Shown: in pieces, positions 2,696 to 56,057 of the stretch | How positions within the stretch are numbered: the first letter of the stretch is position 1 | Layout: each line of letters starts with the position of its first letter | Source: an uncultured bacterium | GTDB taxonomy: Bacteria > Auribacterota > Erginobacteria > Erginobacterales > Erginobacteraceae | NCBI GenBank assembly: GCA_964465735.1 | Contig: CAYXKT010000002.1 | Span: 472 to 64,471, forward strand | Length of the DNA stretch: 64,000 nucleotides | Reading direction: 5' to 3' | The notes under the pieces: generated by a model | Databases searched by the model: none | What the model saw: only the letters and a program-made list of their open reading frames with translations | Told to the model about the DNA's origin: nothing | Program-made: the position numbers and the translations under genes

Positions 2696-4774
2696 CTATC
2701 CCTCCTCCGGTTTTTCCCCGGGGGGAAGGATCTCGATAACCAGATTGGTGGAACGAGGGCCGGTGGAGAGAGTCGGAGGTCCGGAGGTGGAATAATACAT
2801 CGTCGGCGACAGATCCCGGTGGCCCCAGCCGGTCCGGTCAAAGAAGACCCGGGCGCCTTCATTCCAGGTATTGCCCACGAACAGCCTACCTTCCGGAGCG
2901 GGCAGAGTCCAGTAACTCCAGTCACCGGCCGAGCGGGCGGTGAGAAAAGATGACCTCCCCAGTTCCAGATCGGGGCGGCCGTCGTTATTCTTATCTCCAT
3001 AGGCCACGATAAAGAATCCACCTTCGTTGCCGGAAGCGGCGTGCTGGACCTTAACGGTGACTATATCTCCGGTTGAATATGGCTTGACCACCTCCCAGAC
3101 CTGGAGATTATGGCCGGGTGTAGTCCTCAGCTGGATATGCGGGGCCGGTACCCGCTCACCGCTGACCCGAAAGGCCCCCGCCCCGCTCAACTCCTTCAGC
3201 GTCGATTGGAGCTGGAGTTGAGAGATCAAGTTGAATATTCCCAGTGCCAGAAGACCAATCAGGGTTATCCAGACCGCCCTCATCATCCCCGGCGAGGATC
3301 CGGCCCCCGGTCCTCCAGGCAGATCGTCCCCCCGTTTCCTGCTGAAATTCATCATCACGACACCTCCGGTCAGCCAGATTAAGTACAGCGGCAGGAGACT
3401 GAGCTGTCCCCGCAAACCCGCCATCTGTCCCAGGTTGAAAGCGTTAAAAGAACTGGAGACGACGGAATTGCTCTGGAAGGTCGTCTCCGGGTTGATTGAA
3501 AGATAGCCCCCGAAAAAGGAGTGAAAGTAAAGATCCCGGAAAGGATGCCGGGCATACTCCTCGAAACGGACGGCGGTGGCGGTCAGAACTAAAAAGATCG
3601 AGACCGCCGCCAGAAGGGCCGAGATCCGCGGAAAGCGGACCACGAAAAAGAAGGCCAACAGCACCATATACGGCAGCATCTCCATCGCGTGCCGCGGACC
3701 AAATGCTTTTCCCCCATAGTAATAAGGATAGAGGGTATTGATAAAGAAATACCCCGAAATCAGGACTATCAGAATCGGCAAAAGGGACCGCGACCCTTTC
3801 TCTCGGGCCAGATAAAAACCGCCGGGGAAGAGCAGGATGAGAAAGGGAGAGAGATGAAAAAATCCGCGGAAAGGACCAAAGGAGGTCTGGTAGAGGGCCT
3901 CCATCAACTTCCGAGTCTGGAAGCCGAGGAGGGGTCCGTCCTTGTAGGCGCTATGGGCAGCGGCCCGCTTGTCGAAGTAGGCGATATACCAGGGGTTATG
4001 GAAAACCAGGTAGTTATATCCGATCAAGATGGCGGCCGGCAAAATCAGGCCGGCCAGAAACCAGCCGAAACGGAAAGTTCGGCTCCCGTTCCGGAAAAAC
4101 CCTCGAACCAGGCAATAGACCGAGAGCAGGGTGACGATAGCCGCCACGGGATACTCGGTCACCACCGCCCAGCCCCCGGCCAGTCCGGAGAGAAAGATAA
4201 AGAGCGATCCCCGGGGAGCGTCCGGCTCCAGAACCAGGTATTTCAGGAGGAGATAAAACGAGATCACGGTCAGAACCGAACTGACCATATGGCCGTAGAT
4301 CACGGTGGAATAGGCAAAAGCGGAGGTACCGAGAAAAAGGGCCAGAGTAGAGATCAACCTCGGGGCGATGGCTGAATGGAAGAGGCCGAGCAATCGGAAG
4401 AAGACCACCCCGCCTAAAGCGCAGGGCAGGCCGACGATCAGCACCCCCACCAGCCAGCAGGAGAAGAGATGGTAGAAATCCTCCGAGAAGAGACCGGTCA
4501 GGGTACCCTTCAGCCGGGAGATCAGATAGTAGGGGCCGACCCCGACCAGACTCATCCCCGGCGCCTTGTTGGGATAGTTCTTTCCCTCGACATTGACGAT
4601 ATCGTGGGTGGGAACCCGGACACCCCCGAAATGGAGCTGCCCCTGCTCCACCACTGCCCGCATCTGGCCCAGCCGAGCGTTCTGATTCGCCCCCCCGCCC
4701 TGATAGAAATAGGCGAAGCTGAAGAACAAGACGAAAAAGAGAGTTATCTCCAATTTATAATTTCGCAAAATCAA
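2696..4774 (-). CDS. GT-C fold integral-membrane glycosyltransferase (ArnT/PMT-like) with the shared C-terminal domain
   Basis: Multi-TM N-terminal region followed by the conserved C-terminal domain (VxVxHAAxG..GGFxIxAY.D...DG.PD...S.FLT...W). I trimmed the ORF-track start (4972) to the TTG at 4772-4774 (on the minus strand, GAGGA sits 5 nt upstream), because the longer N-terminus would be encoded by the intergenic repeat element at 4895-5004. Confidence 0.5.
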   Translation of the reverse strand: MILRNYKLEITLFFVLFFSFAYFYQGGGANQNARLGQMRAVVEQGQLHFGGVRVPTHDIVNVEGKNYPNKAPGMSLVGVGPYYLISRLKGTLTGLFSEDFYHLFSCWLVGVLIVGLPCALGGVVFFRLLGLFHSAIAPRLISTLALFLGTSAFAYSTVIYGHMVSSVLTVISFYLLLKYLVLEPDAPRGSLFIFLSGLAGGWAVVTEYPVAAIVTLLSVYCLVRGFFRNGSRTFRFGWFLAGLILPAAILIGYNYLVFHNPWYIAYFDKRAAAHSAYKDGPLLGFQTRKLMEALYQTSFGPFRGFFHLSPFLILLFPGGFYLAREKGSRSLLPILIVLISGYFFINTLYPYYYGGKAFGPRHAMEMLPYMVLLAFFFVVRFPRISALLAAVSIFLVLTATAVRFEEYARHPFRDLYFHSFFGGYLSINPETTFQSNSVVSSSFNAFNLGQMAGLRGQLSLLPLYLIWLTGGVVMMNFSRKRGDDLPGGPGAGSSPGMMRAVWITLIGLLALGIFNLISQLQLQSTLKELSGAGAFRVSGERVPAPHIQLRTTPGHNLQVWEVVKPYSTGDIVTVKVQHAASGNEGGFFIVAYGDKNNDGRPDLELGRSSFLTARSAGDWSYWTLPAPEGRLFVGNTWNEGARVFFDRTGWGHRDLSPTMYYSTSGPPTLSTGPRSTNLVIEILPPGEKPEEG

Positions 4775-4894
4775 GGTATCCTCAGCTTGACTTAAAGAAT
4801 GACTGAAAATACAATCAGTCAGTAGTGGCCTGAACCGCTCGTCAGCAAAAGAATATACTATAGCGACTGAACGAAAACCTAAAATCTCACAGGC

Positions 4895-5004
4895 TCTGTC
4901 ATTGCGAGGGACAAAGTGACGAAGCAGTCTCATCACCAGATAAACAGATTGCTTCGTCGTCCCTCCTCGCAATAACCTGGTTTTCGGGGTTTTCGTTCCG
5001 GCAC
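4895..5004 (+). repeat. Intergenic nested-hairpin repeat element, copy C (full length, best-conserved stems)
   Basis: TCTGTCATTGCGAGGGACaaagtGACGAAGCAgTCTCATCACcagATAAACAGATTGCTTCGTCGTCCCTCCTCGCAATAACCTGGTTTTCGGGGTTTTCGTTCCGGCAC. Stems CATTGCGAGGGAC/GTCCCTCCTCGCAAT and GACGAAGCA/TGCTTCGTC. Confidence 0.65.
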
Positions 5005-5165
5005 TACTATAGGTTCTACTCCAGCGGCTGTCTATCCTAACCCGCCGGATTTGAATAATATTTCATTGGTTCGGGAAAATACAGGTTGTGGTTTGTGGTG
5101 TAATCGATTAGAGATAAAACGGTTTTAAGAAGAACAAGTCGGCCAAGGGAGCACGCGAATTTAAT

Positions 5166-5879
5166 ATGAAAATATTCGACCGTAATTTCTGGGGGACAAT
5201 TTTGATCTGGGTGGGGGTGGTTATCTTCCTGGTAGTAATTTACGACATTATCCGGCCGGTCTTTCCCGGACACCCCCCCTACCCGATTATCCAGTCGATC
5301 CAAAACTTTTTCTCCCCCTCTCGGGGACCGAATAAACCACCGCCCGCTGCCAAAAAGGCCCGGGCACGCCGCCCGACGGTGGCGAAAATCCCGCCAAAGT
5401 TTGCCGGCGACGCGCGGATGATGACCGCCAATTCTTATTCTCCGGCGGGGCATTACTCACAGTGGGTCTGGGCGGTTAAACCGGACCGGCAAACTGAGGA
5501 CACGGTCCGGGTCGAGGTTGCCCACGCCGCCCCGGGAATGCCGGGGGGGTTTTCGATCATTGCTTACGCCGACACCATCGGTGACGGTTGGCCCGACCAG
5601 AAGGTGGCGGAATCGGAATTCCTCACCGGTGACCAGGCCGGCCAATGGTCGATCTTTAACTTCACCGCCGGGGAAGAACCTCTGTTCATCGGGTATTCCT
5701 GGGCGGAGGGCCAGGATACTGTCATCTTCCGAAGTAACGGGGGATGGCCTGAGAAAGATTTTCCCCTGGAAGACCGATTCTTTTACCTGATCGACGGACC
5801 TGGTTCCAAGTCGGCCGGGCCGGCCTATACCAATCTCCGGGTATCATTCTCCCGGCAATCAACCCAGGAGAATTCTTAA
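5166..5879 (+). CDS. Small signal-anchored protein carrying the same C-terminal domain as the two neighbouring GT-C enzymes
   Basis: 237 aa. One N-terminal TM helix (FWGTILIWVGVVIFLVVIY), a Pro/Ala/Lys-rich linker, then a domain of about 130 aa that aligns with the C-termini of 130..2361 and 2696..4774. Confidence 0.5.
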   Translation: MKIFDRNFWGTILIWVGVVIFLVVIYDIIRPVFPGHPPYPIIQSIQNFFSPSRGPNKPPPAAKKARARRPTVAKIPPKFAGDARMMTANSYSPAGHYSQWVWAVKPDRQTEDTVRVEVAHAAPGMPGGFSIIAYADTIGDGWPDQKVAESEFLTGDQAGQWSIFNFTAGEEPLFIGYSWAEGQDTVIFRSNGGWPEKDFPLEDRFFYLIDGPGSKSAGPAYTNLRVSFSRQSTQENS

Positions 5880-5880
5880 A

Positions 5881-6606
5881 TTGACGAATATATTCAGCAG
5901 GACTTTGATCGCTGTCGGCATCTTTGTCTCCGTGGGGGTTATCTGCCAAATCCTCTTCGAGCGCGCTGACCAGCCAGGCACGCCACGGCCCCGGATCGCC
6001 CCAGATCGACCACGGATAGAACCGCAGTCGGTGGAAAGCGGTGCCGCCCTGGAGAAGACCGCGAACTACCTGCGAAAAACCGCAACGCAGATAGTGTCGG
6101 GCTGGACCGAGACCGTGGACTTCTCCCACTCCGGCCACTATGATTCCTGAGACGGCAAAGTCCTATCCTGGTGGGAGTACAACGACCAGGACAAACAAAA
6201 GGTAATCTGGAAGTCGGCGCCCTGCCCGGAGAAGCGAACCACCACCCTGGTATTCAGCGGGGTCCTGGGGACTGCTGGAGGAGAAGCGAAACTTTGCGTC
6301 AACGGTCGCCCGGCTCTCTCTTTAAATACCGGGGTCGGACCGGCAACTGAAGAATGGGGAAGAGGAGACTACCACCTGAAGTTTTTCTCCATAGTCGTCA
6401 AACCAAACCAGGAACGGCTGGGGATCTTCGCTCTGAGCATACCGAAAGAAGATGTCACCTCCGGAGAGCCTATCACTCTGGAGGTAAGAGCGGAGGGGCT
6501 TTATAAGTCCGGTAACGGCAACAGATTTTTTCTGCTCAGTTCGATCCCCGAAATTTTAAAGAAACTGCCTCCAAAGAAGCAGGCCCTCGTCTCGTCCACC
6601 GTTCGA
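5881..6606 (+). CDS. Signal-anchored protein whose reading frame is interrupted by an in-frame TGA at 6148-6150 (readthrough, recoding, pseudogene or sequencing error)
   Basis: A TTG-initiated ORF 5881..6150 (89 aa, one TM) is followed in the same frame by 152 further sense codons ending at the TAA at 6604-6606. That stretch contains no ATG, GTG or TTG, so the downstream part has no start codon of its own. Confidence 0.35.
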
Positions 6607-6647
6607 TAACGGAAAGTTACCGGGAAAAACAAAAACTCCAAGATGAT

Positions 6648-8774
6648 ATGCCCTGGAATCCAACAGTCAGACTGATCTTCCTCTTCAGCGGGGTATTTTA
6701 TATCCTGATCGGGATCGGCTTGAAGGGTGGCTTCACTTTTCCCCGCTACCGGCAGCGCCGGATCGGCGGCCTGATCTGGACAATCACCGGGGGGGTGATC
6801 GTTTTTCTCGCCGCCGCCACCGCCGGAGCTGTCGGCTTCCCAGCCCAGCGGATGATGGGGCGCCTGGTTCTCCCGGCGATCAAGCTGGGGGAACTGCTTG
6901 CCGCCTGGGTCCCGCCGCATTCGGCTTCCATTACCGCCGAGGGGTTGACGCTGGTCATCCTGATCGCCGGCGGACTCCTCCTCGGGAAGAAGAAGACCGC
7001 CCGCCCCCTGATCCTGATCCTCTTCGCCGGCGGAGCGGCCCTGGCCGGAGGTTTCTTTCTCAGCCGTTACTCCCTGCCCTCGGCCTATCTCCTTTTCGGG
7101 TTGGCGGTTCTCTACGCCGCGATGAGCGTCCGAACCGGGGACAGCCGGCGGACCGGCAAAGAACCTTTTCTCTCCCCGACCGCCGCGATGCTGACCGTGT
7201 CGGCAATTATTCTCCTCGGCTTTATTCTGAGAACCTACGGACTGGGCGAGGTCTCCTATCGCTTTGATCACTACGAGGCCGATTATGGACGGGAAGCACT
7301 GAAAGTCCTGGCCGGACACCATAACGCCAATCTCTGGACTTCCACGATCTGGCGAGGCTTGGGGCACCTCAACTATTCCCCGGTTTACACTTACCATACC
7401 GCCCTCTTCTTTCAACTCTTCGGGGCCACCATCGTCTCCCTGAAGCTGGTCTCCGTGACCTGGGGGTTGGCGGCCCTGCTTTTGACCTACGCAATCGCCT
7501 CCACTCTCTTCGGGAGAAAGACCGCCCTGATTACCATCTTTTTCCTGGCCGTCTCCCCGCTGCATATAAATTACAGCCGTTTGGGCCTCCTCCTCGGCTC
7601 CACGTTGACAATCAGCCTGCTGATCGTCTTCCTGCTCCTGCGGGCCCTCTTGAAGGAGAAGGTGATCTATTATCTTCTTCTGGGGGTGGCGGCCGGATTC
7701 GCCGGATATTTCTACTCCCCGGCCAAGTACCCGGTCCTGCTGGCCGCGGTTCTGATGGCCGCCTACACGATCTTCAAGCGAAGATGGATTTTACGGAACT
7801 GGCCAGGGTTGATCGTCCTCGGGCTGACGGTGATCATCCTGATGACCGCGCTCAATATCCCGGCCCTGGACCTGATGGCGCCCCGCTTCGCCGGCTACGA
7901 ATCAGTCTGGCACCGGACGGCCGACCATCAATATTCTTCCCAGGCCAATTACCGGAGGGGGATCCCCCTGGTCTGGGAAAACTGGGTGAAACTGGTCCGA
8001 AGTTTCTTCCTGGAGAGAAACTTCAGCTACGACCCCTGGCCCCAAGGCAACCTCTACTTCAACCCGGTCATCCCCCCCCTGGTCCTGCTCGGGATCGCCA
8101 TCAGCCTGGCCCGAATCCGGAAGGCAAATTACCGACTGCTCCTCTTCCTCGCGGCGGCCTTTTTGGTCCCCAACCTCCTCTCCCGGCCGCCGGTAATGGT
8201 CCGACGGATGATGGTCTCCTGGCCTTTCCTCTATTGTCTGGCAGCGATCCCCTTAGCCGAGCTGATCGGGCAAGCCGGTCAACAGGCGGGGCGGGCGGCG
8301 GGGCGGACAGCGGGCGCGATCATTATCGGGGGCCTAATCCTGTTCGGGGCCTACAACACCACCATCTTCTTCCAGAGCCGCGAGCCGGCGGGGAGATGGG
8401 AGGAAGAACGCTTCTTCGACGAGTACGCCAAGAGCCTGATCGACGATTATTATCTCTTCATCGTCCCCATTCAGCGGGGGCTGAGCGAGGAGACAATCCG
8501 CTTCCTCCTCCACGAGAAGATCGAGGCCGGGGTGCGGGGCTACCGCTTTCTCCCCCCCCGGGAGGTTGAAGATTTGTCCCGGGAAGAAGTGCAAAAACAT
8601 CTCCCGGCCGCGGTCGTCGCCGCTTCGGGCACGGTTGCCCGGGCGGTTCTGGAAAAGACCGGGGAGAGACTGGGAAAAGACCGGATCGAGGAGTTCCGGG
8701 ACAAGTTCAACCGGCCCCGAGCCGTCACCATCTTCTTTGAAAGTCCCGGGGGCACACACCTGATTGTTGAATAA
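6648..8774 (+). CDS. GT-C fold integral-membrane glycosyltransferase (ArnT/PMT-like, GT39/GT83-type)
   Basis: 708 aa with many TM helices. The region RFDHYEADYG...GHHNANLW...YSPVYTY...AVSPLHINYSRLG is typical of the ArnT/PMT N-terminal catalytic loop and TM organisation. Soluble C-terminal region of about 150 aa. Confidence 0.6.
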   Translation: MPWNPTVRLIFLFSGVFYILIGIGLKGGFTFPRYRQRRIGGLIWTITGGVIVFLAAATAGAVGFPAQRMMGRLVLPAIKLGELLAAWVPPHSASITAEGLTLVILIAGGLLLGKKKTARPLILILFAGGAALAGGFFLSRYSLPSAYLLFGLAVLYAAMSVRTGDSRRTGKEPFLSPTAAMLTVSAIILLGFILRTYGLGEVSYRFDHYEADYGREALKVLAGHHNANLWTSTIWRGLGHLNYSPVYTYHTALFFQLFGATIVSLKLVSVTWGLAALLLTYAIASTLFGRKTALITIFFLAVSPLHINYSRLGLLLGSTLTISLLIVFLLLRALLKEKVIYYLLLGVAAGFAGYFYSPAKYPVLLAAVLMAAYTIFKRRWILRNWPGLIVLGLTVIILMTALNIPALDLMAPRFAGYESVWHRTADHQYSSQANYRRGIPLVWENWVKLVRSFFLERNFSYDPWPQGNLYFNPVIPPLVLLGIAISLARIRKANYRLLLFLAAAFLVPNLLSRPPVMVRRMMVSWPFLYCLAAIPLAELIGQAGQQAGRAAGRTAGAIIIGGLILFGAYNTTIFFQSREPAGRWEEERFFDEYAKSLIDDYYLFIVPIQRGLSEETIRFLLHEKIEAGVRGYRFLPPREVEDLSREEVQKHLPAAVVAASGTVARAVLEKTGERLGKDRIEEFRDKFNRPRAVTIFFESPGGTHLIVE

Positions 8775-9129: not shown

Positions 9130-10314
9130 TTAAAATTCAAACGCCAGCTGGGCGGTGAACAAGTTTCGCTGGTCGTCGTTCTTGAACTCGCCGTAGAGAT
9201 ACTCAGCCGCCAGGGTGGTATTGGGGAAGATCCCCCAGGATATGCAGATCCCGCCCTGATTTTCCGGGAACCCCGGGAAATCGTTGGAGCCTTCATAGCG
9301 GAGGGCGGTCTCCCAGTTCCCGGAAAACTCCCAGGCCAACTCGATGTTCCAGGCCCGCGGCGCCTTGCCCTCGAGGTCGCTCTCCTCCCCTTCCGGAACG
9401 GGGATATCCTTAAACCTCTTCAACGCGCCCAGGTATTCGGCGCTGAGAGTCAACGAATCGAACTCAAAGATGAAATAGGCGCTGAGGCCGCCCAAGAACT
9501 CGTTGATCTCGCCCAGGGGAAGCATTTCAGCCAGGCCATCGCTATCGGCGATGTCGCTCAGATAGGAAACTCCGGTTGTCAGACCATTGACCGGAGTGAG
9601 ATCAAGGGAGGCTACCAGGTTGTTGATCCGGGAGCCTTGATCTACTTTTTGAATATCGCCCTTGAACGCGCCGACCGAGACGGCGAAGAGGTCGTCTTCC
9701 ATCCCGAGGAGAACCGCGGTCTCCCGCGTCTCGCCCAGCTCCAGGGTCAGGGGGGCGCTGATGAAGCGGCTCTCGAAAACGCCAAAGGGGACATAGAGCT
9801 TTCCGGCCGAGAGGTAATAGGGAAAATCCTCTTCCGCTCCCAGGGTGATGACCCCCTCATCGAGATCGATCGGTTCGGTGGAGTCTTCCTCCCAGAGCAG
9901 AAGGGCCCGGCCGCGGACGTATTTGATCACGTCGACGTCCAGTCCGAGCTCGAAGGTGGCCAGCGTAAGATCGCTGTTGTGCTCATACACCCCTCCGGCT
10001 TTCTTCAACATCTCGTAATTGGCCTCGATCTCGAGAAGTCCCGAAAGCATCACGCCGGGCCAGATCTCGATCCCCTCTTCGAGAAATTTCTTCCCGGCCA
10101 GGGTATCATAGAGCCGGGGCTTCTCTTTCGGTTCCGAGACCCCGGCGGCTTCCGACGGAACGGCAGGGACCCTTGACTCCAGGACTTCGATTCTCTCGGT
10201 GAGGTCACGGATGGCCGGGTCATCCTGCGCCTCAACCGCTGGGGTTGTCAGTACGGCCGCGGAAACCGCGCCAATCAATATTGAAAAAACTATTTTCATC
10301 CTTCTCATCGGCAT
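9130..10314 (-). CDS. Outer-membrane beta-barrel protein (porin-like)
   Basis: 394 aa. Signal peptide MPMRRMKIVFSILIGAVSAAVLTTPAVEA. Alternating amphipathic beta-strand pattern, rich in aromatic residues and Gly. C-terminus ...QLAFEF ends in Phe, the usual OMP beta-signal. Confidence 0.5.
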   Translation of the reverse strand: MPMRRMKIVFSILIGAVSAAVLTTPAVEAQDDPAIRDLTERIEVLESRVPAVPSEAAGVSEPKEKPRLYDTLAGKKFLEEGIEIWPGVMLSGLLEIEANYEMLKKAGGVYEHNSDLTLATFELGLDVDVIKYVRGRALLLWEEDSTEPIDLDEGVITLGAEEDFPYYLSAGKLYVPFGVFESRFISAPLTLELGETRETAVLLGMEDDLFAVSVGAFKGDIQKVDQGSRINNLVASLDLTPVNGLTTGVSYLSDIADSDGLAEMLPLGEINEFLGGLSAYFIFEFDSLTLSAEYLGALKRFKDIPVPEGEESDLEGKAPRAWNIELAWEFSGNWETALRYEGSNDFPGFPENQGGICISWGIFPNTTLAAEYLYGEFKNDDQRNLFTAQLAFEF

Positions 10315-10457
10315 TTCTCCTTTTTACAGCCTAATTTTATCGGTTTCGGGTGCTTCCCGCGTTTTACATTATTCTCATCTCCTTCCCTCGCAGTCCGGCA
10401 ACCGCAATTGATTATCTCTTTCAACCAACCTCGAAAAAATTTTCTGGAACGGACGGA

Positions 10458-10688
10458 TTACCCGATCCAGCGATACAAGACCGCTGCGGACGAACGGCAA
10501 CCATTCATACCGCAGCAACCGCAGGAGCCGCCGCGGCATTCGATCCTCTCCTTCTCCACCGACCCCTTACGGGTCAGCATCTCCATCATCTTCTCCAGCG
10601 CCGATTCCTCGATGCTGAAACGGATCGCGAGGTCGGAGAGGGAGACGGAATCCCGTTCCTTGATCAATGCCTTAATTTCGCTCAGCAT
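10458..10688 (-). CDS. feoC: FeoC-like ferrous-iron transport regulator
   Basis: 76 aa lying directly downstream of feoB (3-nt gap). Winged-helix-like N-terminus plus the Cys cluster CRGGSCGCCGMNGC, as in FeoC. Confidence 0.55.
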   Translation of the reverse strand: MLSEIKALIKERDSVSLSDLAIRFSIEESALEKMMEMLTRKGSVEKERIECRGGSCGCCGMNGCRSSAAVLYRWIG

Positions 10689-10691
10689 TGT

Positions 10692-13001
10692 TCAGCCCGT
10701 CTTCTTTTGGCTCTTTTTTATCATTCCCAGGACAAAGACGATCAGGATCGCCGCCACCATTCCGATCCAGAACAGGGATGTCCCCGGATGGAGGCCGAAC
10801 CGCGCCACCTGGTAGAAGAGGGTCGAGGTCAGCCAGGCCAGGCCCGAAAGGTAAAGGGCGCTGAAGAGCGTCCACTGCCAGTTCAGCTCCCGGTAGACGG
10901 CGGCGATGGCAGCCACGCAGGGCATATAGAGCAAAATCATCAGGAGATAGGCGTAGGCCCCCGCCCGGCCGTCGAACCGCCTCGTCAGGGCCGAGGGGGT
11001 CGAGGTTTCGACCTCCAGTCCCGCGGCGGCTTTATCCAAACTGCCGTATTCCTCAACTTCCGCCCCCAGCAGTCCGGAGACCGAGAAGGGCAGGGTCAGC
11101 TCCGCCAGCGCGACCGGGATTGTCGCGAACGACTCCCCGATTCCTCCCCAGAAGTCGAAATTTTCTCCTTCGCCGGCCGCCGCTTCATCCGGACCGGCGT
11201 CGAGCCGGGAGTAGAGCGCGTCGAGCGTCCCGATCACCGCTTCCTTGGCGAAGATCCCGGTGAAGATGCCGACCGCGGCCGGCCAGTTGGATTCCTTCAT
11301 ACCCATCGGCTGAAATATCGGGACGATCCCCTTCCCGATCGCGCTCAGGATCGAGTTCTCGCTGTCCTCATTCCCGAAGGAACCGTCCGGGCCGAGGGAG
11401 TTGAGAAAGTTCAGGACGATCACCACCAGGATGATGACTTTCCCGGCCCGGAGCATAAACGCCTTCAGCCGGTCCCAGGTATGAAACAGGATCCCCCGGA
11501 GGGCGGGGATATGATAGGGCGGAAGTTCCATCAGGAAGGCGGAGGGTTTCCCCTGTAAGACCGTCCGGTTGAGCAGAACCCCGGTCAGGACGGCGAGAAC
11601 GATCCCCGCCAGGTAGAGCGAGAGCACCACCCAGCCCCCGATCCCGGGGAAGAACGCGGCGGCGAAGAGCGCGTAGACCGGCATCCTCGCCCCGCAGGAC
11701 ATAAAGGGGTTCATCATAATCGTCATCACCCGGTCCTTTTCACTCTCCAGCGTCCGGGTGGCCATAATCGCCGGGACGTTGCAGCCGAAACCGATCAGCA
11801 TCGGGACGAAGGATTTTCCCGGCAGGCCGATCGCCCGCATCAGCCGGTCCATCACGAAGGCGGCCCGCGCCATATACCCGGAGTCCTCCAGAAGGGAGAG
11901 GCAGAGGAAGATGAAGAAGATCGGCGGGATGAAGGTGGCCACGGTCTGGATCCCCCCGCCGATACCCCCGGCCAGCAGGGTGACCAGGAACCCGGGCGCG
12001 CCGATTTTCTCCAGGAGATTTCCGAAGCCATCGACAAAGATGGTCCCGGCGAAGCCGTCAAAAAAATCTATGAAACAGCCGCCGAGGTTGATGGTGGCCC
12101 AAAAGGTGAAGTACATCGCCGCCAGGAAGATCGGGATCCCTAAAAATCGGTTCAGAACCACCCGGTCGATAACGTCGCTCACCGTTTTGCGGACAACGTC
12201 CTTGCGGTCCACCGCCTTGCGGCAGACCGCGCTGATAAATCCGTAGCGACTGTCGGCGATGACGATATCGGTGTCCTCCCCGTTAACAGCCTCGATCCTC
12301 TTCCGGAGGCCGGGGACTATTTCCCGAACCGCCGCCGGAACCGCGAACTTTCCGGGATCGATATCCCCCTCCAGCAGCTTGACCGCCAGCCAGCGGGGGT
12401 CAAACTCCCTCCCCGCCGGATCGGCCGGAAGCCGGGCGATGATCTCCGTTATCGCCTCCTCGACCTCGGGGGGGTAGTAGATCTCCACCGAGGAGACCGG
12501 CCGGTCTTTTAGGCCTCGGTTGACGGCCGATTTCAGTTCGTCGATCCCCTCCCGCCGGGAGGCGACTATGGGCACCACCGGGCAGCCCAGAAGCCCGGCC
12601 AGCTCGTCCACCTTGATCTTGAGGCGCTTGACCCGGGCCAGATCGACCATATTCAGGGCGATCACCATCGGCACCTTCATCCCGATCAGCTGGGTGGTCA
12701 GGTAGAGGTTCCGCTCCAGGTTGGAGGCGTCAACGATGTTGACGATCAGCTCCGGCCGGTCCTGGAGGATATAATCGCGGGCGATCTCCTCGTCGAGCGA
12801 CGAGGTCGAGAGAGAATAGATCCCCGGGAGATCGACGACCTCGATCTCTTGGCCGTCGCGGGAATAGTTGCCGCTCTTGCGCTCGACGGTCACCCCGGGC
12901 CAGTTGCCGACCCGCTGCTTGCCGCCGGTCAGCGCGTTGAAGAGCGTGGTCTTGCCGCAGTTGGGGTTGCCGGCGATACCGATTCTGTATTTTTTGCTCA
13001 T
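10692..13001 (-). CDS. feoB: Ferrous iron transporter FeoB
   Basis: 769 aa. N-terminal G-domain motifs GNPNCGKTTLFNALTG and DLPGIYSL, followed by the polytopic membrane domain. GGGAGG ribosome-binding site 9 nt upstream. 4-nt overlap with feoA. Confidence 0.95.
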   Translation of the reverse strand: MSKKYRIGIAGNPNCGKTTLFNALTGGKQRVGNWPGVTVERKSGNYSRDGQEIEVVDLPGIYSLSTSSLDEEIARDYILQDRPELIVNIVDASNLERNLYLTTQLIGMKVPMVIALNMVDLARVKRLKIKVDELAGLLGCPVVPIVASRREGIDELKSAVNRGLKDRPVSSVEIYYPPEVEEAITEIIARLPADPAGREFDPRWLAVKLLEGDIDPGKFAVPAAVREIVPGLRKRIEAVNGEDTDIVIADSRYGFISAVCRKAVDRKDVVRKTVSDVIDRVVLNRFLGIPIFLAAMYFTFWATINLGGCFIDFFDGFAGTIFVDGFGNLLEKIGAPGFLVTLLAGGIGGGIQTVATFIPPIFFIFLCLSLLEDSGYMARAAFVMDRLMRAIGLPGKSFVPMLIGFGCNVPAIMATRTLESEKDRVMTIMMNPFMSCGARMPVYALFAAAFFPGIGGWVVLSLYLAGIVLAVLTGVLLNRTVLQGKPSAFLMELPPYHIPALRGILFHTWDRLKAFMLRAGKVIILVVIVLNFLNSLGPDGSFGNEDSENSILSAIGKGIVPIFQPMGMKESNWPAAVGIFTGIFAKEAVIGTLDALYSRLDAGPDEAAAGEGENFDFWGGIGESFATIPVALAELTLPFSVSGLLGAEVEEYGSLDKAAAGLEVETSTPSALTRRFDGRAGAYAYLLMILLYMPCVAAIAAVYRELNWQWTLFSALYLSGLAWLTSTLFYQVARFGLHPGTSLFWIGMVAAILIVFVLGMIKKSQKKTG

Positions 13002-13246
13002 CCGTCCGAACCTCCCATCTTTTCGACCTGAACCACCCCGGCCTCCTCCTTGCGGAGGCTAAGGCGGTAATCCTTCAGCTCGATCTCCACCGGATCGCCC
13101 AGGGGGGCCACCCTGGTGACGGTGAATTCCGTCCCCTTGATCAACCCCATAGGCAGGAGCCGGGCCCGGTAGCCTTTCTCGCCCGGCGCCAGGGCCGTCA
13201 CCCGGGCCCGGTCTCCCGGTTTTAAATCACCCAATGTCAAAGGCAT
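12998..13246 (-). CDS. feoA: FeoA ferrous iron transport protein
   Basis: 82 aa SH3-like FeoA (LGDLKPGDRARV...RLLPMGLIKGTEFTVTRVAPLGDPVEIEL). ATGA overlap with feoB. GAGGAGG ribosome-binding site. Confidence 0.85.
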   Translation of the reverse strand: MPLTLGDLKPGDRARVTALAPGEKGYRARLLPMGLIKGTEFTVTRVAPLGDPVEIELKDYRLSLRKEEAGVVQVEKMGGSDG

Positions 13247-13263
13247 CGTATTCCTCCTCTTCT

Positions 13264-13290
13264 ATTATAATTAATTGATTATCTTTATCA
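13264..13290 (-). promoter_or_regulatory. Fur-box-like sequence upstream of feoA-feoB
   Basis: On the minus strand: TGATAAAGATAATCAATTAAT, about 15 of 19 matches to GATAATGATAATCATTATC. Lies 17-40 nt upstream of the feoA ATG (13246), in an AT-rich intergenic region with a GAGGAGG ribosome-binding site. Confidence 0.5.
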
Positions 13291-13312
13291 GTTGTTCCGG
13301 AAAAAAATTTTG

Positions 13313-13636
13313 TCAGCCCAGAACTGACTGATCCCGGGGAAAACCCCGTCTCTCCTCCCGGACCATAACCTTGTTCGCCTCTCCCCTGCCGATGGCCAGG
13401 CGGGTATCCTTCACTTCGATAACAATCGGACCGCTGCCGGAGTTCCTGATCACCCGTAACGGCTCGCCCGGAAGCAACCCGAGCGCGGTCAGCCGTTTCT
13501 TGAAATGCCATCCGCCCTCGAGAGCGGCCAGCGTGACAAGATCGTCCTCACGGGCAAAGGTGACCGGGACGGTATTCCCGCGCGCGCGGATAACGCGGCT
13601 ATTACGCCGGTGAAAAGCAGAATTTCGATAGATCAT
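13313..13636 (-). CDS. feoA: Second FeoA-domain protein
   Basis: 107 aa. FeoA-like core (LAALEGG...KKRLTALGLLPGEPLRVIRNSGSGPIVIEVKDTRLAIGRGEA) directly upstream of feoA/feoB. Confidence 0.7.
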   Translation of the reverse strand: MIYRNSAFHRRNSRVIRARGNTVPVTFAREDDLVTLAALEGGWHFKKRLTALGLLPGEPLRVIRNSGSGPIVIEVKDTRLAIGRGEANKVMVREERRGFPRDQSVLG

Positions 13637-13697
13637 TTGACTATGCTCCTGAGATTTTCATAACCCGAATTATTCATCATCACTTTAATTTATGGCG

Positions 13698-13765
13698 AAC
13701 AGATTAAATTGCTTCGTCGGCCAGAAAGCTTTCGGGCCTCCTCGCAATGATATGTATCATTGCGA
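13698..13765 (+). repeat. Repeat element copy D (partial, diverged) carrying the 11-bp-arm palindrome TCGCAATGATA-tg-TATCATTGCGA
   Basis: GAACAGATTAAATTGCTTCGTCGG....CCTCCTCGCAATGATATGTATCATTGCGA. About 105-130 nt upstream of the second feoA start (13636). Confidence 0.5.
13742..13765. promoter_or_regulatory. Fur-box-like palindrome (AATGATAtgTATCATT) upstream of the second feoA
   Basis: Perfect 11-bp inverted arms TCGCAATGATA/TATCATTGCGA separated by TG. The core resembles the Fur box half-sites AATGATA/TATCATT. Lies within repeat element copy D. Confidence 0.4.
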
Positions 13766-13940
13766 CCGCGATCACACCACGGGGGGAAACAATCTCTATA
13801 ATCTCTATCGACTTGCCCGACAATATTGTTTTTCGCCGATAATCCCGGTTGATGCATTGCGGTATTTAATTCCGTCGGCCCGGAATAAGGTCGAGGGGAT
13901 AATACTGCGATCGATATTCATTCTCAATCGATTTCCGAGT

Positions 13941-13965
13941 AAAAAAAATCCCGGCCGGCTCACTT
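13941..13965 (-). terminator. Possible weak intrinsic terminator downstream of fur
   Basis: The minus strand reads GAGCCGGCCGGGATTTTTTTT: a short GC palindrome CCGGCCGG followed by a T8 run directly after the fur stop (13960). Confidence 0.35.
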
Positions 13966-14388
13966 TCGGCACTCAGCACAGATCCCCCGTATCCCCAACC
14001 GGTGTTCCAGAGGCTGGAAATTGAATTTGTCGCAGACACTCTGCTGGAGCCGCTCAATCTCGTCATTCCTGAACTCATAGACTCTTCCGCACTTCACGCA
14101 AACCAGGTGATCGTGATGCTCGTGACCGTAGGTATGCTCGTAGGTGACGTTCCCCCGGCACATAACGGCCTCCTTGGCCATCCCGCTCTCGAGGAGCAGG
14201 GGGATGAACCGATAGATCGTCGGCATCGAGACCCTCTCCCCCACCGCCTTCAGCCGGTCAAAGAGATCCTCCACGGTGAAGTGGTGGTGAATCTCAAACA
14301 CTTCCCGCAGGAGAATCCTTCTCTCGGGGGTGAACTGCAATCCCCGCGACTTGAGAAAGGCGCCAAATTTATCTTCTGGGGCATCCAT
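13960..14388 (-). CDS. fur: Fur-family transcriptional regulator (ferric uptake regulator)
   Basis: 142 aa. DNA-binding helix region TPERRILLREVFEIHHHFTVEDLFDRL. Metal sites HTYGHEHHDHLVCVKCGRV and CAEC. Sits upstream of the feo genes. Confidence 0.85.
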   Translation of the reverse strand: MDAPEDKFGAFLKSRGLQFTPERRILLREVFEIHHHFTVEDLFDRLKAVGERVSMPTIYRFIPLLLESGMAKEAVMCRGNVTYEHTYGHEHHDHLVCVKCGRVYEFRNDEIERLQQSVCDKFNFQPLEHRLGIRGICAECRK

Positions 14389-18883: not shown

Positions 18884-19777
18884 TTGACAATTCGGGGTCC
18901 GTTCTCCTATTATACAAGTATGAAAGATATTTCTGTCATTATACCGGCTTACAACGAAGAGGCGGGGATCGGGCAAGTGCTGGCGGAGGTGGAGGAAGTT
19001 ATGCGGGGTAGCGGACTTGACTTCGAGATCATCGTGGTCAACGACGGGTCGACCGACCGGACAGCGGAGATTGTCCAGAAGACCGGAGCGGTTCTCCTGG
19101 AGCAGCCGGCCAACCGGGGCTACGGGGCCTCGCTGAAGCTGGGGATCCATCGGGCGAAGTTCGAACGGGTCCTGATCCTGGACGCCGATGGAACCTACCC
19201 GCCGGAAGCGATCCCCCGGTTGCTGGAAAAAGCCGATGACTTCGAGATGGTAGTGGGGTCCCGAACCGGGGAGAACGTTGCCATCCCGGCCTTCCGGCGG
19301 TTCCCCAAATGGCTGCTGAAGAAGCTGGCGGATTACCTGGTGGGGATGAAGATACCCGACCTCAACTCCGGGCTGCGGATCTTCCGGAAGTCGGCGGCGG
19401 AAAAATTTCTTCCCATCCTCCCCGACGGCTTCTCCTTCACGACCACGATCACGGTCGCCTTCCTTTCCAGCAGTCTTCCGGTACACTATGCCCCGATCGA
19501 CTACTACAAGCGTTCCGGGCGTTCCAAGTTCCGCCCGCTTCAGGATACCCTCAATCTTTTAAACCTGATCATCCGGACCAGCCTCTACTTCAACCCCCTG
19601 AAGATCTTCGTCCCTGCCGGCACCTCCCTGCTGGTGGCCGGGTTGGCCCTTCTGGTCCACCGGCTGATCGCCGGGGGGGGAGGGATGGTAACCACGGTGG
19701 TATTGCTGATGGCCGGACTCCAGCTCCTCGCCCTGGGGTTGCTGGCCGACCTGATTGATAAAAGATCCTCCCAATGA
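18884..19777 (+). CDS. GT2 polyprenyl-phosphate glycosyltransferase (ArnC/Dpm1/GtrB-like, membrane-anchored)
   Basis: ISVIIPAYNEEAGIGQVL, IIVVNDGSTD, LDADGTYPPE, and two C-terminal TM helices. The start is either the TTG at 18884 (GAGGAAG 11 nt upstream) or the ATG at 18920 (MKDISVII). Confidence 0.8.
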   Translation: MTIRGPFSYYTSMKDISVIIPAYNEEAGIGQVLAEVEEVMRGSGLDFEIIVVNDGSTDRTAEIVQKTGAVLLEQPANRGYGASLKLGIHRAKFERVLILDADGTYPPEAIPRLLEKADDFEMVVGSRTGENVAIPAFRRFPKWLLKKLADYLVGMKIPDLNSGLRIFRKSAAEKFLPILPDGFSFTTTITVAFLSSSLPVHYAPIDYYKRSGRSKFRPLQDTLNLLNLIIRTSLYFNPLKIFVPAGTSLLVAGLALLVHRLIAGGGGMVTTVVLLMAGLQLLALGLLADLIDKRSSQ

Positions 19778-37340: not shown

Positions 37341-38876
37341 TTATGCTCCCGGCGGAACCTGAATATTCTCTTCCGTCCCCACCACATCTCTCCCCCGGAG
37401 CCGGAACCAATACCGGGCGAGGGCCAGGGCGCTGTTCAGGGCCATTATTATCAGGACCCAGCGGGCCCAGAGCAAGACATACCGCGTAAGATAACTCTCG
37501 AATGACATCAGGGGGAGGAGGGAGGCCAGGTAAACGATCAAGCCGTCCCGGCGAACCAGGATTAACCGGAGCGCCAGGGCAAAAACCACTCCCAGGAAGC
37601 CAAAGCCGCTCAGGACGCCAACCCACCCCCAGTCAGCGTAGGACGAACCCAGGACCGTAACCAACTGGTCGAACCGGGCCAGTTCGAAATGCCGGTTCAC
37701 TGTACCCGCCACCACCATCGGGGGCTTGCCGGGCCACAACACCCTCGGCACGACCGCAGCCGCGGCTTCCAGGTTGTGCCTGCCCCCAAGGAAGGAGACC
37801 CCAAAGCGGTTGTGGGACTCCATCAGGGCCGCCGGCCAGTCGAAACCGTTGAAACGGACCACCATACTCTGCCGGAGCAAGATATCCACCGGCTCCAGGT
37901 CGAAAAACTCGGGATTGGCCACGATCAGCCGAGCACGACGAAAAATATTCCTCTCTTCGGCAATATGCCTCCGGAGAGAGGGATCGGTGCGAGTCAAGTG
38001 TTTGGCCGAAGTCATCAGGAAAAATCCGCCAAGCAGCAGGAAAAATCCCCAGACCACGACTTTCAATCTGATCGACCGGCGAGGATAGAGATAATAGACC
38101 GCGAACGATATGATCAGACAGTAGATTATGATCCGCCGGTTTTCGTAGGCCAGCATCACCGGCAGCAGGAGAGCAAAAAAGATAAAGATCAATTTCGGGG
38201 AGATGCGCCGGGGTCCGGTCCGAGCCAGGAGCAGACTCAGCATTATCCAGGCGGTTCCCAGCAACCAGGGACCTCCCTGCAGAAATATGTTCTCGATTGC
38301 GCCCTCCACCCCGGCAAAGCCGAAGGAGTGCATAACAAATGAACGGGTCATATATCCGAAAATCCCCAAGCAGAGGAAATACCAGAAGAGGGCGGTCCAG
38401 GGGAGAAAGCCCTGCATCATCGGGGAGTAGAAACTTTCCAGGGCGGATTCCAGCGACCGGTCCAAATCAGACATCCGGACCGCCCAGCGATACATTAGGT
38501 CGAAGACCAGCAGCCCGGCCAGGCAGAGCGCGAGCGCCGGGATGTAATATTCATCGGCGCCAAGATTGAAGTATCCGATGATCCCGGCATTGGGAAACGC
38601 CAGCCGGGGGAGCGGGCCGAGGCCGAAATAAACGAACGAGTTGACCAGGACAATACCGTGGGGAGAAAGAAAACCCATAATTCCCGGGTGAACCGGACTG
38701 GTCAGCCAGCGGAAACAGATCATCGTCATCACGATCAACCCGACGGAATACTGCAGGGAGTATGCCGCACCACGGGACGGCAAAAGGAGAAAAAAGCCCC
38801 CCGCTCCGAGACCACAGGCCAGCCAGGCGACCACCCTCCGGCCCAGCTTCAGGTCAACCAGTTCCATAACGGCCAA
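37341..38876 (-). CDS. Polytopic membrane protein, Wzy-like oligosaccharide repeat-unit polymerase candidate
   Basis: 511 aa with about 12 TM helices and one large loop. Position in the operon between the GT4 and kinase genes. Confidence 0.45.
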   Translation of the reverse strand: MAVMELVDLKLGRRVVAWLACGLGAGGFFLLLPSRGAAYSLQYSVGLIVMTMICFRWLTSPVHPGIMGFLSPHGIVLVNSFVYFGLGPLPRLAFPNAGIIGYFNLGADEYYIPALALCLAGLLVFDLMYRWAVRMSDLDRSLESALESFYSPMMQGFLPWTALFWYFLCLGIFGYMTRSFVMHSFGFAGVEGAIENIFLQGGPWLLGTAWIMLSLLLARTGPRRISPKLIFIFFALLLPVMLAYENRRIIIYCLIISFAVYYLYPRRSIRLKVVVWGFFLLLGGFFLMTSAKHLTRTDPSLRRHIAEERNIFRRARLIVANPEFFDLEPVDILLRQSMVVRFNGFDWPAALMESHNRFGVSFLGGRHNLEAAAAVVPRVLWPGKPPMVVAGTVNRHFELARFDQLVTVLGSSYADWGWVGVLSGFGFLGVVFALALRLILVRRDGLIVYLASLLPLMSFESYLTRYVLLWARWVLIIMALNSALALARYWFRLRGRDVVGTEENIQVPPGA

Positions 38877-39939
38877 CTCCCCGGTTACCGGATATCCGCG
38901 GCAGGCAATATCCCGGCCGCGGTCTTCCGTGATCCCGGACTGCCTTGTTCAGAAGATGCTCCACCCCCTTGAGAGCGGCGATCGAAACGGGCAGAAGCAG
39001 GGCCCGGCCGATCCTGACCGGGATGACAGCCTGTTCCAACAGATATAGTGAGGTTAGGGCCTTGAGCTGGCCGGGAACCTCCTCGAGGAAGGATTGTAGG
39101 GAGACCTCCGAATCGGTACAGAGCCATCTTTCGTTGACGAAAAAATCGAGCAGGTCACGGCAACGGCAGAAGCAGCCGGAGTTCTCCCAATCAATAATCC
39201 TGATCGAGCCATCGGGAGCGAAGAACAGCTGATCCGGCCGCAAATCCCCGTGCGAAAAGACCAGCTCCACCCGGTCCAGGCGGGAGGCCGAGTTTTTCAG
39301 GGACCGGACATACCGCCGGACCTCCTTGTCGGCTTCCGGCCGGGAAAGGATCTCTCCGGACAGGCCGGCAAGATAATCTTCGGTTTCGACCACCCGGACC
39401 GGCGCCGAATCTTGCACCTTCCGGACAATCTCTTTCAGGCGGCCGGCGAAGCCAGCCGCGTCGAGGTCGCGCAGAGATCCCGACTTGAAGGGGCGCTCGC
39501 AGATGAATTCCTCGCTGAAGACCCCGGCCTTCCGATCGACAGCGAACAGCCGGGGGATAAAGTCGGCCCCAGCCAGCCGCTGGCGGGCCGTTACCTCGTT
39601 ATCGAAGAACGGCGACAGATCTTTATTTTTCAGAATATTTACCACCTTACGGCGGTCGAAATCAATTATCCGGAAAAATCGCCGGGCATCGATGATCACC
39701 TCGGGCTTTGCCCGGTCGAGAAAAGGGCGGAGCCGCTCAAACCGGAGGTGGTTCTCCAATCTCTCCTTTCCCCGTTTCCGGATCCAGGGAACCGCCGGCC
39801 GGGCCAGGCGCTTCAAGAGACGCCTCGACCGGGTCCGCGATCGGATCGCCCAGAAATGCTTCATCACGTAACCGACGGCCCGGGGCGATTCCGGGTCGAA
39901 GAAGACCGGATAGGAGAGAAACCGGATCAGTTTTGTCAC
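38854..39939 (-). CDS. APH/choline-kinase-fold phosphotransferase
   Basis: Catalytic loop SHGDLRPDQLFF and metal-binding IIDWENSG. The start is probably the GTG at 39937-39939, overlapping the upstream stop (GTGA). The ORF-track N-terminal extension of 160 aa is low-complexity and overlaps the upstream gene. Confidence 0.55.
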   Translation of the reverse strand: MTKLIRFLSYPVFFDPESPRAVGYVMKHFWAIRSRTRSRRLLKRLARPAVPWIRKRGKERLENHLRFERLRPFLDRAKPEVIIDARRFFRIIDFDRRKVVNILKNKDLSPFFDNEVTARQRLAGADFIPRLFAVDRKAGVFSEEFICERPFKSGSLRDLDAAGFAGRLKEIVRKVQDSAPVRVVETEDYLAGLSGEILSRPEADKEVRRYVRSLKNSASRLDRVELVFSHGDLRPDQLFFAPDGSIRIIDWENSGCFCRCRDLLDFFVNERWLCTDSEVSLQSFLEEVPGQLKALTSLYLLEQAVIPVRIGRALLLPVSIAALKGVEHLLNKAVRDHGRPRPGYCLPRISGNRGVGRYGTG

Positions 39940-41174
39940 CGCGACTGTTCCTCCCCCCGGCTGACGATTCCGGCCAGCATCTCTTCGGCGATCACCGCCG
40001 GCGGTCGATCGGTCTTGATAACCAGGCGGTATCGGGACCGACGGCTCATTCCGTCCAGGACCAGGGCGTGGGCGGCCGCTTCTCGGGGGGTCAACTCCCC
40101 CTTGCGCCGGGCGATCTCCTCCGGCTCGTTCCACAACAATATAAATAGGTCCGGGCGGGGAAGCAGGAGGTAAAGAACCCTGATCAGTCCTTCCGGAACC
40201 GCAAAACCCATCGACCGGGACTTGACCGCGTAGGTGAAAAACTTGTCGGCGATAAACCACCCGCCGGACGCCTGAAACTTCCTGATCACCAGCCACTGAT
40301 AGAGCTGGATATCGAGAAAATGATAAAGCAGCCGGGGAATATCCAGGACCGCCGGCCAGACCCGGGGCGGAGCCGGCGGCGAGGTTGAGCCGGGGGGACA
40401 AGCGGGTAATACCCCCTGCCGGAAGGGACGTTCCGGAAGCATCCCGGTCTTTCCCCCGAGATGCCGGATCCGAAAACAGATTCCCAGTCCTTCCAGCCGG
40501 TCCCCGAGCTCGGCCAAGGCGGTGGTTTTCCCCACTCCGTCGGGGCCGTTGACCACCACGTAAAGTCCCGCGGGGAAGAGAAAATCCATCCAGAACCGGA
40601 TATCACCCACCCAGCGGAAAAACCGGTGGAGGGGACGCTCCCGGTATCTGGCCGCCAGCTCCTTTAGCCGGTTTTCGATCCGGATCTCCAAGGCCCGATC
40701 CTCTCGGAAAGCCGATTCCAGGATCCGAAGATAGTCCGGCTTGGGCTTGCGCCGGTGATGGATAAAAAGGCAGGTCAGGAATTCTTCCCTCCCCAACAAA
40801 CTGAATCCCTGCCGGGTCCATCGGCGGCCGACGAGAAAGATTCGGGCGGGAACCATCCCGGAGTCGAGACGGACGACCGAGCGAAGATCGAAAATCGCCG
40901 AATAGCCGTGCCAGTGGAGGGCAACCACCCTTCTCCCGTAACGGCTTCGGACCACCTGGACGAATCTCCACCCCGTATCCAGACGCGCGGCTTCGACAAC
41001 CAGTGAGGAAAACCGCTCAAGATCTCCGCCCGAGACCAGGATATCGGCGTCCTTGGCGGTCCCGGACAAAACCTGACGGAAATTCCTCATCAGGGCATAG
41101 TTGATCTTCCGCCGACCGGCCGACCGCAGAACTTCTCGGATCAGCTCAGCCCGGTTTTCTTGGAGAGTCTTCAT
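39936..41174 (-). CDS. Two-domain protein: N-terminal nucleotidyltransferase-like region plus C-terminal thymidylate-kinase-like P-loop kinase
   Basis: 412 aa. P-loop VVVNGPDGVGKTTALAELG (Tmk-like GxDGxGKTT). N-terminal region GTAKDADILVSGGD. Function not assignable. Confidence 0.45.
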   Translation of the reverse strand: MKTLQENRAELIREVLRSAGRRKINYALMRNFRQVLSGTAKDADILVSGGDLERFSSLVVEAARLDTGWRFVQVVRSRYGRRVVALHWHGYSAIFDLRSVVRLDSGMVPARIFLVGRRWTRQGFSLLGREEFLTCLFIHHRRKPKPDYLRILESAFREDRALEIRIENRLKELAARYRERPLHRFFRWVGDIRFWMDFLFPAGLYVVVNGPDGVGKTTALAELGDRLEGLGICFRIRHLGGKTGMLPERPFRQGVLPACPPGSTSPPAPPRVWPAVLDIPRLLYHFLDIQLYQWLVIRKFQASGGWFIADKFFTYAVKSRSMGFAVPEGLIRVLYLLLPRPDLFILLWNEPEEIARRKGELTPREAAAHALVLDGMSRRSRYRLVIKTDRPPAVIAEEMLAGIVSRGEEQSR

Positions 41175-55352: not shown

Positions 55353-56057
55353 ATGAAGATCCACGTCGGCTGCGGAGATTCCCCGATTTCGGGGTGGCGG
55401 AATTTCGACAACTCGATCAGCCTCCGGCTGGCCGGGATCCCTCTCCTGCCCCGGCTCCTCCGCCGGTGCGGAATCCTCAACCCCCGCCAGTACGCCTTTA
55501 TCGAGTTTGCCCGGTTACACCGGATCGAGTACGGCGACGGGGTCAAGGGGCTCCCGGTCCCCGACTGCTCCGCCGAGGCTCTCTACAGCTGCCATATGAT
55601 CGAGCACCTCAGCCGGGCCGACGCCGGACGTTTCCTGGAGGAAGCGAAGAGGGTCTTAATCCCCGGGGGAGTCATCCGGCTGGCGGTCCCCGATCTCCGG
55701 AGACTGGCCGGCCGCTACCTGGAGACCGGCGATGCCGACGGTTTTATCGCCGCCACCTACCTGGGCCGAGAGAACGACGGATCCGTGGCCGGGAGGATGG
55801 CAACGCTGATCGCCGGGCCGCGGCTCCACGGGTGGATGTACGATGAAAGATCGTTGGGCCGACTTTTGCGGGACCACGGATTTTCCGAGGTCGTCGCGGT
55901 CCCGCCGGGCGAGACGGGGATCCGGGAACCAGGAGAGTTGGACCTGAGAGAGAAAGAAGATGAGAGCGTCTATGTTGAGGCGGTAAAACCGGCCGGGGAA
56001 TCGGAAGCCCAAATCGCCTCCAACCGCCCGGTCGGGCCGGTAGAACCGGCTCAATAA
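55353..56057 (+). CDS. SAM-dependent methyltransferase (Methyltransf_11/23-like)
   Basis: 234 aa. [42 protein letters not shown]. Its 3' end overlaps the giant gene convergently by 7 nt. Confidence 0.65.

Follow-up and report, generated by a model that had tools for sequence, protein, structure and literature searches.

Several settings are known in which a UGA codon interrupts an otherwise open reading frame. Bacterial selenoprotein genes of the fdhF type carry an in-frame UGA with a SECIS hairpin, and the A1 read-through protein of phage Q-beta is an example of leaky UGA termination in which the stop is read by tRNA-Trp. Lineage-specific nonsense pseudogenes represent a third setting, in which the stop lies one step from a conserved codon and a syntenic ortholog is intact. 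The gene analyzed here, designated gene B, occupies positions 5881-6609 of a 64-kb stretch of DNA from an uncultured bacterium (the window) and is interrupted by a single in-frame TGA.

A comparison of gene B with these systems shows both similarities and disparities. Like the selenoprotein genes, gene B possesses an in-frame UGA and a hairpin within about 40 nt; unlike them, it has homologs with Trp at the UGA position, and its hairpin is neither specific to the UGA allele nor thermodynamically distinctive. The leaky UGA systems, including A1 and those of E. coli and B. subtilis, share with gene B a UGA stop at which Trp would be expected. In contrast to those systems, the gene B stop is not conserved, is not followed by A at the +4 position, and is followed by an extension with no evidence of selection, and any readthrough would be incidental. 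As in lineage-specific nonsense pseudogenes, gene B has an intact syntenic ortholog, a stop one step from a conserved codon, a downstream frame that is still open, and a raised substitution rate in the affected lineage. Unlike such pseudogenes, it has undergone minimal decay, its start looks renewed rather than lost, and its tail is devoid of any in-frame start codon. Taken together, the data indicate that the TGA is a nonsense mutation (TGG to TGA) that has probably left a young pseudogene or null (truncated) allele of a gene for a protein resembling carbohydrate-binding modules (CBMs).

The interrupted reading frame

Reading of the window confirmed most of the description of this locus given in a first-pass annotation. 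The frame-1 ORF beginning at the TTG at 5881 comprises 89 codons with one hydrophobic helix (TLIAVGIFVSVGVICQILF) and ends at the TGA at 6148-6150; after the TGA, 152 sense codons follow in the same frame (DGKVLSWWEY...LVSSTVR) without an ATG, GTG, or TTG, and there is no Cys adjacent to the TGA. The terminal TAA had been placed at 6604-6606, which is instead CGA (Arg), the last sense codon. The TAA lies at 6607-6609 on the forward strand, is aligned with the TAA of the closest syntenic ortholog (L001), and represents the original stop of the ancestral full-length gene.

In a window of ~58% G+C, dozens of stop codons have at least 80 open codons on each side, and the open run after the TGA proves little by itself because long stop-free stretches are common in this DNA. 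The continuation can be recognized as real coding sequence because full-length relatives cover both halves. The locus on the forward strand can thus be divided into the retained 5' part of gene B (5881-6147, 89 codons from the TTG), the premature TGA (6148-6150), and the 152-codon remnant (6151-6606), which encodes most of a CBM-like beta-sandwich and is either untranslated or reached by rare readthrough only. These 152 codons are what is left of the old reading frame, which has not yet decayed. Independent expression of the tail was considered unlikely in the first-pass annotation, and this judgment stands: there is no in-frame start, and the ORF from the closest ATG, at 6140, is in another frame and runs for only ~21 codons. 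A separately translated tail was also rejected on structural grounds: judged from the AF2 model of an intact ortholog, a fragment beginning beyond the Trp position would be missing the initial strands of the beta-sandwich.

Conservation of tryptophan at the stop position

The translation of 5881-6606, with X at the stop, was used as the query in a search of a large protein collection. This identified 19 homologs, 18 of 220-258 aa and one 194-aa fragment from a 902-nt contig, which cover 72-97% of the query with identities of up to 79%. In each of the 19 aligned homologs both halves form a single protein, and Trp occupies the TGA column in 19/19, within the motif YDSW.GKV.SWWEY. In a codon alignment, the TGA of the window is matched by TGG in the syntenic orthologs L001 (79% amino acid identity) and L002 (65%). 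The same codon is TGG in a MAG of Ca. Erginobacter occultus (L010; phylum Ca. Auribacterota, PVC group), the sole relative found among GTDB species representatives. Protein matches are biased toward intact copies because gene callers truncate TGA-bearing homologs, and JGI metagenome DNA was therefore scanned with a degenerate family pattern permitting TGR at the stop codon. All 13 of the matches, some of which are duplicate sequences, have TGG. No TGG sister allele of the window lineage was found in the JGI metagenomes (searched with an exact 38-nt TGR pattern) or among the protein homologs.

The presence of Trp or TGG in all relatives identifies the stop as the result of one G>A transition, from TGG to TGA, in a Trp codon that is otherwise invariant, and G>A is the commonest substitution type on the window branch in gene B and in both of its neighbors, genes A and C. 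The first-pass annotation had suggested comparison with orthologous loci and had noted that orthologs consisting of two separate genes would speak against a single interrupted gene; the orthologs are instead one intact gene with TGG at the stop codon, which supports a recent nonsense mutation among the options listed there. Three JGI metagenome contigs (L011, L013, and L018) carry two or three copies of the gene B family each. A tblastn search of the window detected no gene B paralog able to compensate.

Occurrence of the TGA allele

Gene callers predict exactly the 89-aa product of the retained 5' part on six Logan contigs, assembled from separate sequencing runs (SRR11702754, SRR11702755, SRR11702771, SRR25572340, SRR29792785, and one similar contig with its run not displayed), and the protein collection lists the product from NCBI as well. 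In four of the six contigs (L005-L008), the gene B DNA is 100% identical to the window wherever it is covered. With zero variation in gene B, these four contigs provide no within-lineage polymorphism for measuring selection on the tail. The TGA lesion is real in the assembled contigs, and random sequencing error, another of the options first proposed, is excluded by the recovery of the allele on six contigs from separate runs and in an NCBI-held sequence. In a broader form of this proposal, the organism would truly have TGG, and the TGA would reflect an assembly error or a minor variant picked by the assembler; in its favor, only one base differs from the ancestral codon. This is very unlikely, as the identical TGA comes from at least three accession series among the separate runs, and as neither the protein homologs nor the exact TGR scan of JGI data contain a TGG version of the window lineage.

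Two of the contigs carrying the allele differ from the window upstream of gene B. Positions 1-1190 of L007 (SRR25572340) correspond to window 5221-6410 and show 54 mismatches in 659 nt of gene A (8.2%) vs. none in the next 530 nt, which belong to gene B and include the TGA; all 54 of the L007 mismatches thus fall in gene A. Two explanations fit this pattern: the gene B allele has recombined or swept between strains, or the short contig is a chimera. In L005 (SRR29792785), positions 1-937 are unrelated to the window DNA upstream of 4866, with a gene encoding an Lcl_C domain in place of the 758-aa GT-C-like membrane protein, and all differences lie upstream of position 4950. The difference represents either structural variation or a chimera. 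If L005 and L007 are not assembly chimeras, then the TGA allele has persisted or spread across strain backgrounds.

Genetic code and selenocysteine

The alignment of UGA with Trp would also be expected if UGA were reassigned to Trp throughout the genome (translation table 4), and a PVC-group lineage, Ca. Pinguicoccus supinus, has been reported to use UGA as Trp (PMC13092985), which counts in favor of such a code here. The stop codons of the window argue strongly against it. TGA terminates 24 of the 41 long non-overlapping ORFs and is the commonest terminator, and these ORFs end where expected; they include feoB (10692-13001, minus strand), which ends in TGA and matches its NCBIfam model end to end. 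Several gene stops overlap the next start as ATGA or TTGA (19774 and 29576), and the GT2 gene at 18884-19777 ends in TGA and encodes 297 aa, the same length as its L002 ortholog. Trp codons number in the hundreds in the long ORFs and are all TGG, and gene B is the only recognized gene so interrupted, as no further in-frame TGA of this kind was found in any recognized gene of the window. Two suspicious overlapping ORFs (38854-40401 and 39936-41174, minus strand) are explained by the choice of the most upstream start in the ORF listing. The standard code applies in the window, as the first-pass annotation had correctly concluded from the termination of feoB and other genes by TGA, and reassignment can be given almost no weight. 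The UGA at 6148-6150 is accordingly read as a stop by the normal machinery, since more of the long ORFs in the window end in TGA than in any other stop codon.

Decoding of the UGA as selenocysteine by way of a downstream SECIS hairpin was another of the options initially raised. A 7-bp hairpin, UCCUGGU-(12 nt)-ACCAGGA, is present on the forward strand at 6166-6191; it begins 15 nt past the TGA, which is roughly the bacterial SECIS position. The fold of 6140-6230 is no better than that of shuffled sequences (z = -0.23), and no Rfam match was found at gathering thresholds; a scan of 6050-6350 at E-values up to 10 returned only a spurious minus-strand snoRNA match. Six of the seven pairs also occur in the TGG-bearing L001 and L002, as the hairpin sequence codes for the invariant SWWEY.DQ peptide. 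It is thus a by-product of this coding sequence and not a SECIS element. The residue aligned with the UGA is Trp throughout and is not Cys or Sec in any homolog. No selA, selB, or selD was recognized among the scanned ORFs of the window, and ARAGORN detected no tRNA gene in its 64 kb, and thus no tRNA-Sec or suppressor tRNA there. Selenocysteine was rejected on this evidence and is exceedingly improbable.

The bacterial TadA enzyme has U-A-C-G in a loop as its target motif. A-to-I editing of the mRNA, which would convert UGA to UGI, was rejected as improbable on the basis of this motif, as the A here lies in a G-A-G context.

The encoded protein and its gene neighborhood

No Pfam domain is found in any of the 19 homologs, and the interrupted family is matched by no Pfam or NCBIfam model. 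The AF2 model of the closest intact ortholog (P0001) has a mean pLDDT of 76.5, with values of 88-97 over most of the beta-sandwich core, and predicts a TM helix (residues 6-35), a disordered Pro/Arg-rich linker, a helix (58-71), and a beta-sandwich (75-224). The closest folds are those of the beta-jelly-roll carbohydrate-binding modules (CBM35, CBM36, and CBM6-like). Gene B is thus predicted to encode a conserved, uncharacterized, membrane-anchored CBM-like beta-sandwich protein of ~245 aa. By comparison with this model, 5881-6147 would encode the signal-anchor or TM helix, the Pro/Arg-rich linker, one helix, and the first short strands of the beta-sandwich. The mutated Trp sits in a strand of the predicted beta-sandwich, and because the stop falls within that strand the 89-aa product should keep the anchor and be unable to form the domain. 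The product would be an 89-residue anchor stub lacking almost the whole beta-sandwich, which would make gene B functionally a young pseudogene or null allele.

Gene B lies between gene A (5166-5879, forward strand; 237 aa, with a TM helix and a C-terminal domain) and gene C (6648-8774, forward strand; 708 aa, a PMT_2-type GT-C glycosyltransferase), and gene C now begins 497 nt past the last translated codon of gene B. The order of gene A (227-237 aa, TM helix), gene B (243-247 aa), and PMT_2 (699-708 aa) is common to the window and the two closest groups. In L002, the order continues as in the window with PMT_2, GT2, epimerase, GT2, B12-radical-SAM, and PMT_2+PA14. Consensus scans of 4900-6900 for promoters and terminators gave nothing informative. 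The C-terminal domain of gene A (~130 aa, with no Pfam match) also ends two large GT-C membrane proteins of the window (2696-4972 and 130-2361, both minus strand), with 42% and 37% identity, and seems to represent a domain that accompanies GT-C transferases and has not yet been described.

The window as a whole contains a large glycan or exopolysaccharide region, probably of a bacterium related to Auribacterota. Four PMT_2 GT-C proteins are encoded there, along with a fifth large membrane protein, which weakly matches an LA_3751/LA_3752-type putative glycosyltransferase. The remaining components include GT2 and GT4 enzymes, an epimerase, a radical-SAM enzyme, Wza- and Wzc-like proteins, a flippase, a Wzy-like protein, methyltransferases, and a carbamoyltransferase. 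From this setting, we infer that the gene B protein may be an extracytoplasmic glycan-binding accessory of the adjoining GT-C transferases. Between the PMT_2 genes, an iron-uptake module (9130-14388) encodes an LbtU-like porin, feoB, a FeoC-like ORF (seen in L020), and Fur; it is absent from the orthologous position in L002 and is therefore a lineage-specific insertion into the glycan cluster. Giant surface-protein-like genes adjoin the cluster, comprising a minus-strand ORF of 2616 aa with SBBP beta-propeller and FG-GAP repeats (56051-63901) and two FG-GAP paralogs of ~460 aa (50616-52037 and 52527-53900).

Substitution rates and decay

Substitutions were polarized with L002 as the outgroup, so that the window branch could be compared with that of its sister L001. 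The 3' end of gene C is aberrant in L001 (~3520-3765, aligned with window 8526-8771), with 46 lineage-specific substitutions in ~216 aligned nt vs. three in the window, and G/C transversions are numerous. The segment in L001 was probably recombined or is misaligned, and it distorts simple relative-rate controls. Gene B has accumulated 51 substitutions on the window branch vs. 22 on the L001 branch, compared with 26 vs. 25 for gene A and 59 vs. 74 for gene C without its aberrant 3' end. The trimmed flanks together (genes A and C) thus give 85 vs. 99, and the density of substitutions in gene B on the window branch is ~2x that of the flanks. The excess is significant against both trimmed flanks (Fisher, p = 8e-4) and marginal against gene A alone (p = 0.04).

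On the window branch, gene B matches its flanks in synonymous rate, and its non-synonymous rate is ~3.6-fold higher than theirs. With four outgroups, 23 lineage-specific amino acid changes were counted in the window copy (one of which is the TTG start written as M) vs. seven in the nearest relative. At columns invariant in the 19 others, the window has five private deviations (W to stop, S>N, T>S, S>R, and M>L), four of them replacements in the tail, and the nearest relative has one. The tail shows an N:S ratio of 14:5 on the window branch, which fits omega = 1 and rejects the long-term omega of 0.27 for the family (p = 0.016); the counts are small, and parsimony undercounts synonymous changes, so that this ratio is suggestive rather than proof. 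The branch omega for the whole gene is ~0.6 in the window and ~0.5 in the sister, a difference that is not clear with so few counts. No second stop, frameshift, or indel is found in the tail. These substitution patterns are suggestive of relaxed constraint on gene B, and its inactivation is recent when set against the divergence from L001 (dS ~0.3).

Start codons and readthrough

The start of gene B has also changed. The orthologs L001, L002, and L010 have ATG at 5866, where the window has AGG. The change from ATG to AGG creates a Shine-Dalgarno-like hexamer, AGGAGA, at 5866-5871 on the forward strand, with its first three bases at the start position of the orthologs, 9 nt upstream of the TTG at 5881. 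This TTG, which is TTA or CTG (Leu) in relatives, is the only start available to the window copy. The start of gene B has thus moved five codons downstream, and the TAA of gene A (5877-5879) ends one base before it. The relocated start still looks serviceable, and functional rather than decayed.

Start-capable codons have disappeared from the tail as well, with no in-frame ATG, GTG, or TTG in the window tail vs. 4-9 in 11 intact homologous tails (mean 5.7; Poisson P(0) = 0.003). Three start-capable codons are inferred in the ancestor shared with L001, and all three have been lost on the window branch (GTG>GTA, ATG>CTG, and TTG>TTA). The hypergeometric probability of losing all three is 0.002-0.007, a post hoc value, and two of the losses are synonymous G>A changes.

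These features bear on whether the stop is leaky to a selected degree, such that UGA would be read through at a useful rate by a near-cognate, variant, or suppressor tRNA-Trp and gene B would be a hypomorph with its expression tuned down. The residue inserted by tRNA-Trp, the known misreader of UGA, would be the ancestral one. Among stop codons UGA is the leakiest, and its misreading by tRNA-Trp is known from E. coli and B. subtilis (PMC5289835). In some standard-code bacteria, in-frame UGA is decoded by suppressor tRNAs or by a tRNA-Trp whose anticodon stem has only 4 bp (PMC13092985). Both observations count toward a leaky stop. The fully open frame of the tail, the intact start region, and the presence of the allele in several samples, possibly in several backgrounds, are also consistent with it. 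If it were true, its footprints would be the removal of start codons from the tail, the renewed TTG and Shine-Dalgarno sequence, and the identical allele beside diverged DNA in L007 and L005.

Against this, the TGA is confined to one near-clonal lineage, and every other member of the family examined has TGG, so that neither the stop nor the extension is conserved among relatives. A at +4 favors misreading by tRNA-Trp in E. coli (PMC5289835), and the +4 base in the window is G, which counts against a leaky stop, although the E. coli rule may not hold in the host phylum. A strong suppressor is hard to reconcile with TGA as the majority terminator of the window, and the downstream hairpin is unremarkable. 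Relaxed constraint is suggested both by the replacements at invariant residues and by the raised substitution density. Programmed readthrough, the remaining option of the first-pass annotation, finds no support in the single near-clonal lineage or in the +4 G. A selected leaky stop is on balance unlikely, and its specific form, in which a tRNA-Trp, possibly a variant with a 4-bp anticodon stem, restores Trp and yields a small, tuned amount of protein, is slightly less likely still. Basal misreading of the UGA by tRNA-Trp would insert the original Trp, and such passive, low-level misreading could give traces of the full-length wild-type protein, with no sign of selection or programming. Features that count against a pseudogene are the slight decay, the marginal rate acceleration when gene A alone is the control, the similar omega values of the two branches, the functional-looking start region, and the location of the allele beside an 8%-divergent gene A in L007 and beside different upstream DNA in L005.

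Conclusions

In conclusion, the phenomenon observed at gene B is an ordinary one, namely gene inactivation, and involves neither selenocysteine nor an altered code. For annotation, 5881-6606 should be entered as a single disrupted gene, with pseudogene status and an internal stop, rather than as a selenoprotein gene, as evidence of a recoded genome, or as a small ORF followed by intergenic DNA. The interrupted family, which occurs in glycan clusters of Auribacterota-like bacteria, could be described as a new domain family. In one lineage, probably related to Auribacterota, a GT-C-rich cluster has been deprived of an accessory membrane protein that probably binds glycans. Because relatives keep this protein, sometimes in two or three copies, its loss suggests either that the protein is dispensable or that the glycan decoration of the cell surface varies between strains.
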